From sequence record PV611058: 64,000 bases of DNA. The stretch is one strand, 5' to 3'. This DNA is from Escherichia phage WPEC3. This document shows, piece by piece, positions 833 to 20,877 of the stretch; positions within the stretch are counted from its first letter, which is position 1; each line of letters opens with the position of its first letter. The notes beneath the pieces are model-generated. The model was not told where the DNA came from. It saw only the letters and a program-made list of their open reading frames with translations, and did no database searches. Made by a program: the position numbers and the translations under genes.

Positions 833-921
833 GATAAAACTCCTTAATTTAGGAGGGAGAACCATTTCCCCCTCTCTATGTAAAACATTATACATGAATC
901 TAAGTACTATGCAAGTACTTT

Positions 922-1254
922 TTACATTTTAATACCTGGATTCAGGTAGCGGTGAGATCCATATTCTGGATCGGTTTCGGTCCAGTACTGTAAATCTATA
1001 GTACCTTTAGCGTTAATCTTATCTACCAGCTTATTCATCTTAGCGTATACTACATCAGCATCGATGCGTTTAAAGCCAGTGGCTTTAGTGAAGTAGTAGT
1101 GATTTGCTTCACTATCATTCAGGATGTACCGAGAACCGTTTGCCGTTTGTGCGATAATGATTGAGTATTCTACGTTACGGTCGAGGCCGTCGATGAATAC
1201 AGAGGAAACATTAGTACGGATGAAAGCTTTAACGATAGCGATTGAAGTAGTCAT
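922..1254 (-). CDS. hypothetical early protein (110 aa)
   Basis: ORF; SD AGGAG; TTGACA-N17-GATAAT promoter upstream. Confidence 0.6.
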   Translation of the reverse strand: MTTSIAIVKAFIRTNVSSVFIDGLDRNVEYSIIIAQTANGSRYILNDSEANHYYFTKATGFKRIDADVVYAKMNKLVDKINAKGTIDLQYWTETDPEYGSHRYLNPGIKM

Positions 1255-1500
1255 TTTGAATCTCCTAACTTTGTGGGCCGTCGCACCATTGCCGCCCTAC
1301 GAGATACATTATCGCAGTACTGATATACTTTGTCAATACTTTTTTTATTAATAGTTTTAGTTCCACCAGCAGATAGTTACTCACCGTTATTAACTATATA
1401 TTTTGGATACACCTATGCACCCTGTGGGCTAGTTTTTGTCTATGCGTATATAATAGCAAAGGGACTGACCGGAGTCAATCCCTTTTTTTATTCTTTTTTG

Positions 1501-1701
1501 TTAGATGATTCTCCAATCATCAACGATCATGGTAAGATACCGAACCAGTGATTCGAGTGATTCGTGTTCTCGATAGTCTGCCGCTCCACCAGCGGTACAA
1601 GTACAGCCGATTAAGCCGTTTTGTAGTTCCTGGATCTTTACGTCGATCTGGTTGGCTTTAGCTTCTTTCAGTACTTCAACCAGGGCGATAGCGATAGACA
1701 T
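1501..1701 (-). CDS. hypothetical early protein (66 aa)
   Basis: ORF; PeSL cassette (TTGACA-N17-TATAAT, stem-loop, SD) upstream. Confidence 0.55.
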   Translation of the reverse strand: MSIAIALVEVLKEAKANQIDVKIQELQNGLIGCTCTAGGAADYREHESLESLVRYLTMIVDDWRII

Positions 1702-1791
1702 AATGTTTTACTCCAAACTATTGGCGGGAGAACTATTCCCCCGCTCTATGTAAAACATTATACATTACTGGTTAGTACTGTCAAATAGTTT

Positions 1792-2049
1792 TTATGAAAT
1801 ATCTTCGATGTAGTCGGCCCATTTCATTTTTTCAGTACTGTCAATGGCTACCGGATTATTTGGATCAAACCATTCACCATCACCGCAATACATACCCACG
1901 GCTACGGTTTTATAGCCATCCTGGGCCGTACACCACGACATTGCACGATAGATATGGCCTTTAACTGGTTGCAGTACTGGTAACGTTTTATGGTCTTCTA
2001 CGTAGGCCATAGCTTGAGGATTTACCCGATATTGTGTGAACTGATCCAT
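1792..2049 (-). CDS. hypothetical early protein (85 aa)
   Basis: ORF; TTGACA promoter and purine-rich SD upstream. Confidence 0.55.
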   Translation of the reverse strand: MDQFTQYRVNPQAMAYVEDHKTLPVLQPVKGHIYRAMSWCTAQDGYKTVAVGMYCGDGEWFDPNNPVAIDSTEKMKWADYIEDIS

Positions 2050-2125
2050 TATGTTTCCCCTTGTAGTTAGTAAAGTTATTACATCAGTACTATCAAGCTA
2101 TGTCAATAGTACTGAAATAAAACTT

Positions 2126-2350
2126 TTAGATTAGATTATTGAGGCCGTCAATGGTAGACTCACTTTCTTCTTTCTCCCATTGTCGGTAGTACTTCCATGC
2201 TTCATGATAGGTGGCGATTAGTTCATCTTTTTGATCCTGGTTACATGCCAGTACTGAATCACGGTGAGCGGTGTTATAGATAGAATCGAATGATTTCTTC
2301 TCTTCTGCCAGGTTAGCTACTTCCCGCATCAGTTCATCAAAGTTAGCCAT
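2126..2350 (-). CDS. hypothetical early protein (74 aa)
   Basis: ORF; PeSL cassette with SD AAGGAG. Confidence 0.6.
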   Translation of the reverse strand: MANFDELMREVANLAEEKKSFDSIYNTAHRDSVLACNQDQKDELIATYHEAWKYYRQWEKEESESTIDGLNNLI

Positions 2351-2417
2351 TTTATTACTCCTTTTAGTGGGGGAGGATATCTCCCCCTATGCAAAACATT
2401 ATACTTTGTTTTAGTTA

Positions 2418-2681
2418 TTATGCAAGTACTTTTTTCATATAAACATTAAATTCTACACCGCCGTAACCTTCCACGATGATATGTTTTGCGTTATCACGTT
2501 TGCACATAGTGAAACCATCGTTTACGTGTTTTGCATTTTCCAGGGCGACATCACCGATAGCGGCACATACGGCACTAATAACAGTATTCCGCAAAGTACT
2601 GGTATCATTGGCGGTCATAGTAGTTTGCAGTACTACGTTGTCGTATACGTGTGCATTGATAGTGATTTCGATAGTGTTCAT
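2418..2681 (-). CDS. hypothetical early protein (87 aa)
   Basis: ATG at 2681 (MNTIEIT) after SD AGGAG and PeSL; track extension is translated promoter. Confidence 0.6.
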   Translation of the reverse strand: MNTIEITINAHVYDNVVLQTTMTANDTSTLRNTVISAVCAAIGDVALENAKHVNDGFTMCKRDNAKHIIVEGYGGVEFNVYMKKVLA

Positions 2682-2768
2682 GGTGTATCTCCTGGACTTG
2701 AGGGGAAACCATTTCCCCCTCTCGATATAAAACATTATACGTTAATCTAACTACAATGCAAGTACTTT

Positions 2769-2960
2769 TTAAATTTTATTTCCGATATAGTCCGGCATGT
2801 TCTTTTCAGTCATACGCTTTGCTAATGTCTGCATATGGCTTATAGCGTTCAAGGTGTCTTCCTCCAGGGATGAATCAAGATAATCAGGATCATTCTTCAC
2901 CTTGCAATGATTATGATATCGTAGTACTGCCAGTACTTTTTTAACTTCTTCAACTGTCAT
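2769..2960 (-). CDS. hypothetical early protein (63 aa)
   Basis: ORF overlapping stop of upstream gene (translational coupling). Confidence 0.5.
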   Translation of the reverse strand: MTVEEVKKVLAVLRYHNHCKVKNDPDYLDSSLEEDTLNAISHMQTLAKRMTEKNMPDYIGNKI

Positions 2961-18958: not shown

Positions 18959-19397
18959 TTTGTAACCCTCATTCAGTAGTTGATGTAAGTATTATACGCT
19001 TTTACTTTCTATTGTCAAACTATTTTATCAGGGGAGTTTTTCGTGTGCCTTACTCCTGGGCTACTTAACGGGAAGTTACTTATTTCGTTCCCCGTCCTGA
19101 TGTAAAACATTATACGCCTTTAAACATAGTTAGCAAGTACTTTTTAAAAATAGTTTTCAGTACTGAATAGTAAAAAAAAAGTATTGACAGCATTATCAAG
19201 TACTGGCATAATAGCTACATAAAGACGAGAAAGTCACTAACCCACCGGGTGCATAACTGTAACTATACTAAACTACTTTTTCTATAGATACATCTCCGCA
19301 CCCTATGGGCTACGGCTTATCTGCCAATGAATACATTATGCCAGTACTGACAAAATAAGTCAATACCGGCAATTGTAAATTTTTCAAAAAAATATGA

Positions 19398-19628
19398 TTA
19401 TACTGCAATCGCGTCCAGGCTGTAATAATAATAAGTGCCGTATTGGTGTACTTTATTACCTTTTATTTCAGTACTGAATGAATCCGAACGATTTGCATAT
19501 GATGTTAATTTAAAGTACTTTGATTTGCTGATACGTTGCCATACACCACAGATCCGCTGTAAGTAAGTAGTTTTATTCGTGGTAGTATCTTTTACGGTTT
19601 TAACTTCAGTCATATACATATTAGTCAT
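19398..19628 (-). CDS. hypothetical early protein (76 aa)
   Basis: ORF; PeSL upstream. Confidence 0.55.
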   Translation of the reverse strand: MTNMYMTEVKTVKDTTTNKTTYLQRICGVWQRISKSKYFKLTSYANRSDSFSTEIKGNKVHQYGTYYYYSLDAIAV

Positions 19629-19715
19629 TTTTATTACTCCAGGTTATAGGCGGGAAGAGTTCCCGCTCTCGATGTAAAACATTATACGCCTTTAAACATA
19701 GTTAGCAAGTACTTT

Positions 19716-19982
19716 TTATTCAAGTACTGCAATCTTTTTAGTACGGTACACGGTCACGCGGTTGCCCTTTCGGTCGAGCTTTATTTCTACCACTCGACGC
19801 GATACACTATCGGGACTTTTTAAGGCCGCTAACCAGTACTGTAATGATCTGGCGGTACTACGCTTTACAATGGCCCAACGTTTACCACGTTCCGATTGTA
19901 CGCCCATATCTTTAAACGTTGCCCCGTCCTGGCGTGCGGCGATCCGAGCTTGTTCACGCGTCGCAAAATACTTAATATTCAT
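19716..19982 (-). CDS. hypothetical protein (88 aa), paralog of 5756-6151
   Basis: ATG at 19982 (MNIKYFATRE); shared motifs with 5756-6151. Confidence 0.6.
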   Translation of the reverse strand: MNIKYFATREQARIAARQDGATFKDMGVQSERGKRWAIVKRSTARSLQYWLAALKSPDSVSRRVVEIKLDRKGNRVTVYRTKKIAVLE

Positions 19983-20014
19983 GCTGTTGCCCTTATCGTT
20001 GGTGTATGAATAAA

Positions 20015-20046
20015 ACACTATTATAAAGTACTATCGCAAAAAAATG
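20015..20046 (-). promoter_or_regulatory. perfect inverted repeat AAAGTACTATC / GATAGTACTTT next to a TATAAT
   Basis: 11-bp arms, 10-bp spacer; upstream of 19716-19982; copy at 6201-6234. Confidence 0.5.
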
Positions 20047-20068
20047 ATAGTACTTTAAATAAATTCTA

Positions 20069-20308
20069 TTACATTCCAACCATCGCCGCACGGATCGCAG
20101 TAGTGCTATATTTGAATCCGTCCGGTGTTTTATCTTGTCCAGTCTGTTCTAAAAATAACATCATATGACGGGCCGCATCATTGCGATTAGTATTGGCGGC
20201 AATAAAGTCCAGGGCCAACCGATACAATCCCTCATCGTTATTAATCCACAGGCTTACATTCCAATGAGTTTTGTTTTTGTGACCTAAGAACATTTTTGAT
20301 TTAGCCAT
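20069..20308 (-). CDS. hypothetical protein (79 aa), paralog of 18017-18256
   Basis: ATG at 20308 after SD AAGAGGA and PeSL. Confidence 0.6.
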   Translation of the reverse strand: MAKSKMFLGHKNKTHWNVSLWINNDEGLYRLALDFIAANTNRNDAARHMMLFLEQTGQDKTPDGFKYSTTAIRAAMVGM

Positions 20309-20400
20309 TTTTTTAATCCTCTTATATAGTGGGGAACTATTCCCCACCTGATGTAAAACATTATACGCTTTTATTCAGTACTGTCAAACTAATTTTTAAC

Positions 20401-20763
20401 TTATTCGTAAATTTTGCCACTGTCAGCCCATACCAGGAAACGAGGCATATTATCCCATGCATCTTGTTTTAAATTTAAACCGTGTAATACTTCTGTACTT
20501 TCCATTCCTGGTACTGGTTTACTATACACCGCGAAATTTTCGCCCATATACTGATAAGCCATCGTCAAATCACTGGCGATCATCTTATGGATCATCGCAT
20601 CAAGCATCACGGTGGCGGCGTATTGTTCACGCTTAAGCGGCAGCATTTTAATCAGTTCGCGGTATGCGTCAATGTGAGTTTTAACCGTTGCCGCCGGAAG
20701 ATCTTTCATATCGTCGCGGAAGTTAACCAGGTTAGCAATGATTTTAGTGATTTGAGTCGCCAT
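20401..20763 (-). CDS. hypothetical early protein (120 aa)
   Basis: ORF; PeSL upstream. Confidence 0.6.
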   Translation of the reverse strand: MATQITKIIANLVNFRDDMKDLPAATVKTHIDAYRELIKMLPLKREQYAATVMLDAMIHKMIASDLTMAYQYMGENFAVYSKPVPGMESTEVLHGLNLKQDAWDNMPRFLVWADSGKIYE

Positions 20764-20877
20764 CGTTTTAATCTCTTAAAAGTGAGTAGGGAAGTGTTCC
20801 CGCTCTCGATGTAAAACATTATACGCTTTTTTCAGTACTGTGCAAGTACTTTCTACAAATACTTTTAAAATAGTTTT

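Follow-up and report, generated by a model that had tools for sequence, protein, structure and literature searches.

The stretch of DNA considered here (the window, 64,000 nt) comes from Escherichia phage WPEC3 (PV611058), and the elements of interest are repeated cassettes at positions 840–20850 in which a promoter, a stem-loop, a Shine–Dalgarno (SD) sequence and the start codon of a small gene follow each other on the minus strand. The closest relatives of this region by megablast are members of Asteriusvirus, jumbo coliphages of ~350 kb that include PBECO4, 121Q and G17, and the best relative covers at most 76% of the 22-kb region. The gene coordinates of phage G17 agree almost one for one with the window from position 1; the window represents the left end of a genome of the G17/PBECO4 type, from a RaK2-like jumbo phage. 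The direct terminal repeat of phage vB_Ec-M-J is annotated at 1–21525, and position 1 of the window corresponds to position 21525 of that genome, reversed. The interval 840–20850 is therefore essentially the ~21.5-kb direct terminal repeat, to which positions 1 to ~21,500 of the window correspond. Records of 366–383 kb contain 17–23 cassette sites compared with 10–12 in records of 348 kb, a roughly twofold difference that fits the presence of two copies of the terminal repeat in the longer records. Nearly all genes of the region are annotated as hypothetical, the region is hyperplastic and rich in ORFans, and about 40 of its ~58 small minus-strand genes have a promoter of their own.

Related phages provide some context for this arrangement. 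RpoD-like promoters cluster before short early open reading frames (ORFs) in the RaK2-like phage CBB, whose portal has been placed with homologues from T4-like phages (PMC5259590), and in phage PA5oct, which depends on the RNA polymerase of its host, early transcription of the genes in the long terminal repeat is high (PMC7318152). The papers on CBB and rV5 list RpoD-type promoters only (PMC5259590, PMC3606486), and in the literature searched, the coverage of which was incomplete, we found no description of hairpin cassettes or cassette-mediated shuffling in these phages.

Cassette number and consensus

The initial annotation had described about 27 cassettes in this interval and proposed a motif search with their consensus. 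The repeated promoter/hairpin/SD cassettes are confirmed. A structure-aware scan found 25 complete cassettes, defined as promoter, ATCRAG start region, G-rich hairpin of 7–9 bp, SD and ATG, at 833–20395, and one more at 55751–55833. With a covariance model of the −10 hexamer, start region and hairpin, 29 window copies were detected; every one is on the minus strand (845–20823) and inside the repeat. The motif search with the −10 plus initial-transcribed consensus GTATAATRNTTTACATCRAG, allowing up to 3 mismatches, yielded 30 copies, all on the minus strand at 874–20824, compared with 0.21 expected, and none of 100 shuffles reached 30.

The promoters are close to the sigma-70 consensus. TTGACA-N15–19-TATAAT occurs 15 times in the window (0.29 expected), 13 of these on the minus strand at 1757–20387, and perfect 12/12 matches number 12 within 1–20,000 and 13 within 840–20850. 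A scan for TTGACA/TATAAT alone missed two thirds of the cassettes because the −35 of the missed ones is TTGCAn, and it was replaced by the −10 plus start-region consensus and the structure-aware scan. The annotation had given TTGACA with a CAGTACTG spacer as the consensus, which holds for about a third of the copies only: TTGACA is found in just 8 of the 25 strict cassettes, whereas 16 have AAAAGTAC-TTGCAn (a 4/6 match to the −35 hexamer), an N16 spacer and TATAAT. Upstream of the −35 lies an A/T-rich tract with AAAAGTA or AAAAnTA in nearly all 25, and the 3′ end of each cassette supplies the SD and start codon of the downstream gene. Some 13 further genes have a promoter, start region and SD without a hairpin.

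The complete cassettes of the repeat, all on the minus strand, are given here with the −10 position and the ATG in parentheses. The leftmost, 833–922 (−10 at 892–887, predicted transcription start 879, ATG 832), is of the AAAAGTAC-TTGCAT subtype and is followed by 1702–1792 (1762; 1701) of the TTGACA subtype, 2351–2433 (2403; 2350) with the stem GGGGGAG/CTCCCCC, and 2682–2769 (2739; 2681). The cassettes at 3230–3320 (3290; 3229) and 3727–3814 (3784; 3726) have in common a core of ~61 nt (58–61 nt identical) and together bracket gene 3726–3319; next to them lies 4032–4118 (4088; 4031). Two near-twins, 6571–6662 (6632; 6570) and 6841–6931 (6901; 6840), precede 7838–7924 (7894; 7837), 8137–8221 (8191; 8136), 8760–8841 (variant TATAGT at 8811; 8759) and 10858–10947 (10917; 10857). 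Gene 11845–11378, an indel among the relatives, is flanked by 11296–11382 (11352; 11295) and 11846–11933 (11903; 11845). Farther along are 12440–12525 (12495; 12439), 12673–12755 (12725; ATG 12672 or 12667), which has the sole terminator-like cassette hairpin (12705), 14476–14561 (14531; 14475), 14790–14880 (14850; 14789), 16343–16429 (16399; 16342), 16664–16746 (16716; 16663), 17130–17215 (17185; 17129), 18257–18342 (18312; 18256), 19629–19716 (19686; 19628) and 20309–20395 (20365; 20308), the last of the TTGACAGTACTG subtype. Two degenerate copies, also on the minus strand, have an imperfect stem GCGGGAA/TTCCCT (20764–20853, ATG 20763) or a GATAAT −10 with a hairpin GGCGGG..CCCGCC (17960–18027, ATG 17959). 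The copy at 55751–55833 (minus strand), with the stem GGGGATGA/TCATCCCC, is the sole complete hairpin cassette outside the terminal repeat.

Two further statements of the annotation also stood up. It had noted near-identical cassettes of ~90 nt at 6571–6660 and 6841–6930, and the two units (6571–6662 and 6841–6931) have 97% identity over ~100 nt. It had regarded certain N-terminal extensions in the ORF track as non-coding, and MYNVLHREGE, MFYIERG and (M/L)TVLKCFS are indeed translated cassette or promoter DNA, with MFYIERG originating in the cassette at 2682–2769.

The palindrome in the proposed spacer did not prove to be a cassette component. AGTACT, with the extended form CAGTACTG, occurs 291 times in the 64 kb compared with 22 expected, a 13.5-fold excess (sites include 132, 283 and 792). 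Its density is 3.9 per kb in coding DNA, where it is found in all three frames, and 11 per kb, about three times as high, in non-coding DNA; AGTACTG directly adjoins the −10 in only 9 of 25 cassettes. AGTACT is not cassette-specific, and its position in the cassettes is one placement of a palindrome over-represented throughout the genome. A 13–20-fold excess is found also in other Asteriusvirus genomes and in a sampled Alcyoneusvirus locus (phiKp_21). Literature searches for AGTACT and CAGTACTG returned only primers and templates.

Start sites and leader hairpins

TATAAT is followed in the cassettes by 7 nt and then by ATCGAGAGGG or ATCAAGGGG. Promoter A1 of phage T7 (NC_001604) has GATACT, 7 nt (tacagcc), and then A (+1, nt 498) with TCGAGAGGG / TCGAGAGGGAC. 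Because the spacing and the first ten transcribed bases equal those of T7 A1, we infer by analogy that transcripts start at the A of ATCRAG, 7 nt past the −10.

With this T7 A1 geometry, the predicted 5′ untranslated region (UTR) has a median length of 44 nt and contains one hairpin, which follows 1–7 unpaired 5′ nucleotides (median 4.5), ends at +21 to +33 and would span about +4 to +28 of the mRNA. The hairpin stands at the same offset in 25–27 of the 30 motif copies. The mean folding energy of the predicted 5′ UTRs is −13.4 kcal/mol, which is essentially that of the hairpin (z ~−2.3 relative to dinucleotide shuffles), and the SD region of the folded UTRs is open, with a mean unpaired probability of 0.91. 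A T-run follows the hairpin in only one of 25 cassettes (12705). The same scan flagged true terminators in the region at 15053, 15784, 5733 and 16903 and in the GGGATTGAC hairpins (1485, 4240, 7506, 12054). Canonical terminators are thus used where the phage terminates, and the cassette hairpins are differently built.

Base pairing in the stems appears to be maintained through sequence change. The window, the five relatives used in the junction comparison below and three other phage groups contain 46 unique hairpins at the same offset, with 29 distinct stems, and stem variants with compensatory changes include GGGGAGAA/TTCTCCCC, GCGGGAA/TTCCCGC, GTGGGGAA/TTCCCCAC, GGGGATACA/TGTATCCCC and GGAGATTCCA/TGGAATCTCC. 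Cassette alignments by MAFFT lose the register of these variable-length stems and the RNAalifold consensus is weak; loop-anchored stems and covariance-model realignment were used instead. The loop-anchored stems are 96.5% Watson–Crick compared with 59% (maximum 69%) after the 3′ arms were shuffled among stems, a comparison to be read with the fact that the hairpins had been selected for pairing. The model-based alignment (98 distinct rows) has 38 cells changed on both sides compared with 10.1 in shuffles (0/500) and a covariation score of 0.258 compared with 0.211 (0/500) that peaks at the unslid register, for an alignment that keeps register errors and for sequences that are related to one another. 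Mismatches under unbiased scoring comprise seven G·T and one A·C, and in 17 cases versus 2 it is the sense and not the antisense strand that folds more stably. The excess of G·T over A·C together with the sense-strand bias points to selection at the RNA level in the mRNA sense. The hairpin looks like an RNA-level leader element and not a terminator, and it would function as a stabilizer and insulator.

A search of Rfam 15 gave no matches at the gathering score in the whole window and none at E ≤ 0.1 in 1–22,000, and no tRNAs were found. By inspection, four candidates were rejected: RNase III sites, which would call for longer stems; a LexA box in CAGTACTGTATAAT, where there is a half-site only; a T4 MotA box in ACTTGCAA, which has no TGCTT; and integron attC sites, the stems being short and perfect.

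Recombination at cassettes and other promoter units

Comparison of the window with five relatives (CRJP21, CMSTMSU, G17, fEgEco12 and E9.1) by BLAST revealed 27 junctions with 32 unique block ends. Nineteen of the 32 fall within cassettes, which occupy 16% of the region (P = 2 × 10−8), and the enrichment is significant even when the whole of the non-coding DNA serves as the null (P = 0.006). At about half of the 27 junctions the gap in the relative is negative (up to −101 nt), and one cassette of the relative aligns to both window cassettes flanking a gene present in the window only. The window-only genes at such junctions are 3726–3319, 5386–5168, 11845–11378, 12667–12521, 14252–14040 and 14475–14332. 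Gene 3726–3319 is absent from CRJP21 and E9.1, and the single cassette that these phages have at this place is a base-level chimera with the upstream flank of the cassette at 3784 and the downstream flank of that at 3290, joined via the core common to both and identical over 58–61 nt. The indel of gene 11845–11378 leaves a 95-nt overlap signature in four relatives. With a sequence of ~60–90 nt repeated about 30 times in one orientation, the cassettes serve as portable homology. At the level of genome comparison, these junctions show single small genes being deleted, inserted and replaced where cassettes recombine with each other.

The cassettes are not confined to the genus. A single cassette used as query has copies at 78–90% identity in three groups outside it, namely Vequintavirinae (A73, W70), Stephanstirmvirinae-type phages of ~146–152 kb (muut, ECGD1, PHB05 and others), and Alcyoneusvirus with other RaK2-like jumbo phages, and the intergenic regions of all three have the same layout. 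Window segment 6852–7358 is 92.4% identical over 512 nt to Justusliebigvirus muut, 14336–14851 is 84.5% identical over 516 nt to the Vequintavirinae phage A73, and 6582–6890 is 90% identical over 313 nt to a 97-kb metagenomic contig. The ends of these matches lie mostly inside cassettes: the homology to muut stops within the hairpin of 6841–6931, and that to the rV5-like phage A73, whose 516-nt module includes 14476–14561, stops at the −10 of 14790–14880. The start region is conserved even between phage families. A scan of viral contigs for TATAATNNTTTACATCNAG returned mostly chance matches, with real cassettes in few contigs only. As judged from these shared segments, modules bounded by cassettes have passed from one lineage of virulent coliphages to another, unrelated one. 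AGTACT is present at 0.1-fold the expected frequency in muut and 0.7-fold in A73, and the sampled 49 kb of muut contain two AGTACT sites, both of them in the shared 510-nt module, which suggests transfer from a RaK2-like phage.

Besides the hairpin cassettes, the minus strand of the repeat has promoter-only cassettes. That at 18959–19018 has a consensus promoter with a T7 A2/A3-like spacer, a ACATCAAC start, SD and ATG 18958, and 17625–17690 (ATG 17624) has TTGCAA-N16-TATAAT. The unit at 14253–14312, with an extended −10 (TGG-CATAAT), is a duplicate of 13951–14020, and the two bracket the indel gene 14252–14040. Others are 17403–17468 (ATG 17402), 10562–10625 (ATG 10561), 10292–10363 (ATG 10291), 9195–9251 (ATG 9194, an acetyltransferase gene in relatives), 7203–7263 (ATG 7202, within the 512-nt module 92% identical in muut), 6152–6224 (ATG 6151), 5387–5443 (ATG 5386, the origin of the false (M/L)TVLKCFS extension) and 2050–2106 (ATG 2049). 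A promoter TTGACA-N17-GATAAT with an atypical leader is found at 1255–1336 (ATG 1254).

Three other minus-strand units carry longer leaders. At 7264–7387 a first promoter and a compound structured leader of ~75 nt are followed by a second promoter (7263–7236); this leader unit is 88–92% conserved in A73 and muut and collinear with the T7 A1–A2 interval. A second copy of the first promoter and compound leader lies at 19019–19144, before the promoter 19018–18991. For the compound leader a three-stem fold is predicted, yet four sequences showed no covariation. The third unit, 15558–15716, has a promoter TTGACA-N16-TAGAAT and a long leader that holds a 35–36-nt element, TAAGTAGACCGCCAGTAAGTCGAACGAAAAACTGG (15622–15656, minus strand), with 86–91% identity to T7 nt 551–586 (z = 11.7). 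In T7 this segment sits between promoters A1 and A2. Weaker copies of the element are present at 7265–7345 and 19020–19102 on the minus strand, a database-wide BLAST search with it found an rV5-like phage, other jumbo phages and, with the element at the corresponding genome position, T7-group Yersinia phages, and its closing stem changes in a compensatory manner from CCUG/CAGG to CCAG/CUGG. It could serve the second promoter as an upstream element, or else be a leader motif of the RNA. Literature searches for the motif in the T7 leader brought up nothing but primers and templates.

Terminator/promoter composites form another class. The minus-strand unit at 1450–1485 has a terminator hairpin AAAGGGATTGAC-TCCG-GTCAGTCCCTTT with the −35 TTGACT within the stem and TATTAT 17 nt downstream, and units of the same type lie at 4205–4240, 7471–7506 and 12019–12054 (all minus strand). 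The element, which the annotators of G17 labelled a terminator, recurs before genes at 50–62 kb. Outside the terminal repeat, promoters of another class, TTGACTTCGGTCAGCCCTTTTTGCTATAAT, occupy minus-strand positions 50926–50955, 52904–52932, 53624–53653, 58246–58275, 60510–60538 and 61289–61318, where the −35 lies within a terminator-like hairpin AAGGGTTGAC-TTCG-GTCAGCCCTT followed by SD and ATG. Both elements have the classical layout of promoter early stem-loop (PeSL) cassettes, discussed below.

Some long intergenic regions are themselves modules of 190–230 nt repeated at 76–89% identity (~4025–4253, 7331–7520 and 11839–12067; also 7218–7408 and 18973–19164). Each combines a hairpin cassette with a terminator/promoter composite, a CCCAynGGGTGC element and a TTCAGTACTGAA palindrome. 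Nine non-coding stretches, promoter-driven and with no ORF downstream, have CCCAynGGGTGC as their invariant core, and the palindrome ACCC-nnn-GGGT is part of it. Six are on the minus strand (1370–1449, 4125–4204, 7391–7470, 11939–12018, 9732–9811 and 19255–19334) and three on the plus strand (16802–16881, 19213–19292 and 21150–21229), the pair 19213(+)/19334(−) being convergent and overlapping. The nine copies yielded no fold with covariation support. Near the inner end of the cassette field and the predicted terminal-repeat boundary there are direct repeats of ATTGATTCAGTACTGAATAATAGTACTCCTATATAGAAAGA (20830–20965). Beyond the cassette field, fEgEco12 (~21,000–30,000) and E9.1 (~20,200–30,000) have dozens of ~200-bp genes in tight arrays with 4-bp stop/start overlaps and no intergenic promoters, in sharp contrast to the one promoter per gene of the terminal repeat.

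Relation to known systems and interpretation

The initial annotation had likened the units to the promoter early stem-loop (PeSL) cassettes of some T4-type phages. PeSLs, known from the T4-like phages RB49/phi1, T4/PST and KVP40/nt-1, consist of a strong sigma-70 promoter, an AT-rich tract, a stem-loop, SD and ATG, with the stem-loop usually between or overlapping the promoter hexamers; the stem-loop was shown experimentally to terminate, and PeSLs mediate indels, form mini-circles and crowd hyperplastic regions (PMC2839356, PMC4122927). In RB49 the hairpins strongly reduced downstream lacZ expression (PMC2839356). The likeness holds for the composite of ~70–100 nt with its A/T-rich tract, near-consensus sigma-70 promoter, G(n)-loop-C(n) stem-loop, SD and ATG, for the location of the repeats before small ORFans in a hyperplastic early region, and for the gain, loss and replacement of genes between close relatives by recombination between copies. 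It does not extend to the lineage, which is Asteriusvirus (RaK2-like jumbo) and not Straboviridae and in which the cassettes fill the direct terminal repeat. Nor does it extend to the hairpin, which in RB49 lies in the −35/−10 spacer (TTGACAggggatcaccgatccccTATAAT) but in the window in the predicted 5′ UTR and without terminator features, or to the range of exchange, which spans virus subfamilies and not sister phages alone. Neither blastn-short nor the covariance model matched a window cassette to the PeSL region of RB49 (112–130 kb), and RB49 start regions share the string CATCAAGACGAGA with some window promoters. The evidence supports the reading as PeSLs in part: the cassettes are PeSL-like in their evolutionary role and form a new architectural variant outside the classified T4-like family, differing in architecture, probable hairpin function, sequence and host lineage.

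Other systems resemble parts of the cassettes. T7 A1 has the same distance from the −10 to a start base A and identical first 10 transcribed bases (ATCGAGAGGG), and the T7 A1/A2/A3 arrangement of tandem promoter, leader and second promoter is similar to that of the compound units, the second promoters having in common the spacer TTGACAAyAnrAAGTAAA. T7, however, has three promoters for one operon, compared with one promoter per small gene, ~40 times, in the window, and in the T7 A1 leader (nt 498–750) we saw no GGGGAA..TTCCCC hairpin, by eye only. Ungapped short local alignments of T7 to most cassettes were not significant (z 0.6–3.1); only the gapped collinear alignment (z ~5) and the 36-nt element (z 11.7) hold. 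The ompA leader and the T7 gene 10 leader are 5′-terminal stabilizing stem-loops of Escherichia coli and phage mRNAs. Like them, the cassettes have a stable hairpin a few nucleotides from the 5′ end and then an open A-rich ribosome binding region, but their 4–5 unpaired 5′ nucleotides are at the margin of reported protection and stabilization is in their case predicted. PA5oct and CBB have dozens of small unknown genes in a 20–40-kb direct terminal repeat (PMC7318152, PMC5259590), early transcription by host RNA polymerase, TTGAC/TATAAT promoters and UP-like tracts; there, only promoters are listed, and a leader hairpin, repeat-family analysis and cassette shuffling are not described.

These results lead us to propose, with a probability of roughly 0.7, that the cassettes are self-contained early-gene expression units in which the leader hairpin acts at the RNA level and whose repeated sequence drives the shuffling of genes inside the genus and across phage families. 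Each unit of ~85–90 nt would combine an A-rich upstream tract, a host sigma-70 promoter (TTGACA or TTGCAn, 16 nt, TATAAT), the conserved start region, a G-rich 7–9-bp hairpin, an unstructured A-rich SD region and the ATG. Host RNA polymerase would fire each cassette as soon as the terminal repeat enters the cell, and by analogy the cassette genes would be early genes. The hairpin may act as a near-5′-terminal RNA leader that most likely stabilizes the mRNA and insulates the ribosome site from whichever ORF follows, without terminating.

Several points weigh against this proposal. Start sites and timing, like the function of the hairpin, are predictions, and the usual beginning of the hairpin, 4–5 nt from the predicted 5′ end, is at the limit reported for protection from 5′-end-dependent decay. 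The hairpin is dispensable for expression, as some 13 genes have the promoter alone. All stems have the G-rich arm on the 5′ side, which may reflect common ancestry or a sequence-specific ligand and not only structure. The covariation counts are inflated because many of the compared cassettes are orthologous, and the number of G·T versus A·C mismatches is small (7 vs 1). RB49 PeSL hairpins are also without clear T-runs yet cut lacZ expression (PMC2839356), so attenuation is possible.

The last point bears on a reading we regard as improbable, in which the cassettes are classical PeSLs and the hairpin is a terminator or attenuator that blocks upstream read-through and insulates each small gene, as in RB49/phi1. 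In their composite layout, their hyperplastic surroundings rich in ORFans and their recombination behavior the cassettes agree with it, one of the five PeSL subclasses carries its stem-loop downstream of the −10, and RB49 stem-loops are likewise of the G(n)-loop-C(n) form. The window also has true terminator–promoter composites with the −35 in the stem, at 1485, 4240, 7506 and 12054 and at six sites at 50–62 kb. The cassette hairpin, however, lies downstream of its own inferred start, where a terminator would abort the cassette's own mRNA, 24 of 25 hairpins have no T-run whereas genuine terminators in the region have one, and neither the covariance model nor blastn found a copy in the RB49 PeSL region. 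Somewhat less probable still is that the hairpin and the ATCRAG start form a protein binding site that co-regulates early transcripts, for example by shut-off at the early-to-middle switch, with a translational repressor, an early-mRNA-specific endoribonuclease or a boxB-like antitermination factor as candidates. One ligand on ~30 transcripts would be an economical switch, and pairing is not the sole constraint: every 5′ arm is rich in G/A and resembles an SD (GGGGAG, GAGGGG), the core GGGAA..TTCCC hardly varies, and the start region is kept even across phage families. Yet no candidate protein was identified, promoter-only cassettes do without the site, and the stems of distant relatives differ (GGGGATACA, GGAGATTCCA) while loops vary from 3 to 8 nt, which argues against a sequence-specific ligand.

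We consider it very unlikely that the cassettes have neither mobility nor shared ancestry and reflect convergence on an optimal E. coli promoter and ribosome site, or, in a variant of this idea, that the hairpin is a DNA-level recombination site (cruciform, attC-like). Consensus −35, −10 and SD would be expected of any strong early promoter, and viable indel breakpoints must fall between genes; convergence does not account for identity that runs through unconstrained spacer and leader (58–61 nt for 3290/3784, 97% over 100 nt for 6632/6901), for the excess of breakpoints in cassettes, which persists with all non-coding DNA as the reference, for the base-level chimera at the junction cassette of relatives, or for cassette-plus-gene modules 84–92% identical in otherwise unrelated genomes. 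The G·T versus A·C asymmetry and the sense-strand bias argue against a DNA hairpin, and attC sites do not have such short and perfect stems.

A broader extension of the proposed early-expression units is tentative, and we would put it just short of an even chance. The cassettes may represent a pool of portable early-expression modules common to RaK2-like jumbo phages, rV5-like Vequintavirinae and phAPEC8-like Stephanstirmvirinae, with leader and start pieces also in T7-like phages and RB49. They could act as a universal recombination linker that moves single host-takeover genes between families without other DNA similarity, and AGTACT would show the direction of some of the transfers.

If the proposal is correct, several consequences follow. 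The predicted ~40 early transcription start sites would come with a simple annotation rule, by which the gene starts ~44 nt past the inferred transcript start and false N-terminal extensions are removed, and the cassettes would constitute a natural library of strong promoter and 5′-UTR parts for E. coli. The 13-fold AGTACT excess specific to RaK2-like phages and the 35-nt leader element common with T7 are independent leads. The idea behind PeSLs, that regulatory cassettes are also recombination seams, would apply not only to the classified T4-like phages but to jumbo phages as well, and to exchange across subfamilies, and it would account for the assembly of the large and rapidly changing stock of small early genes of the terminal repeats.

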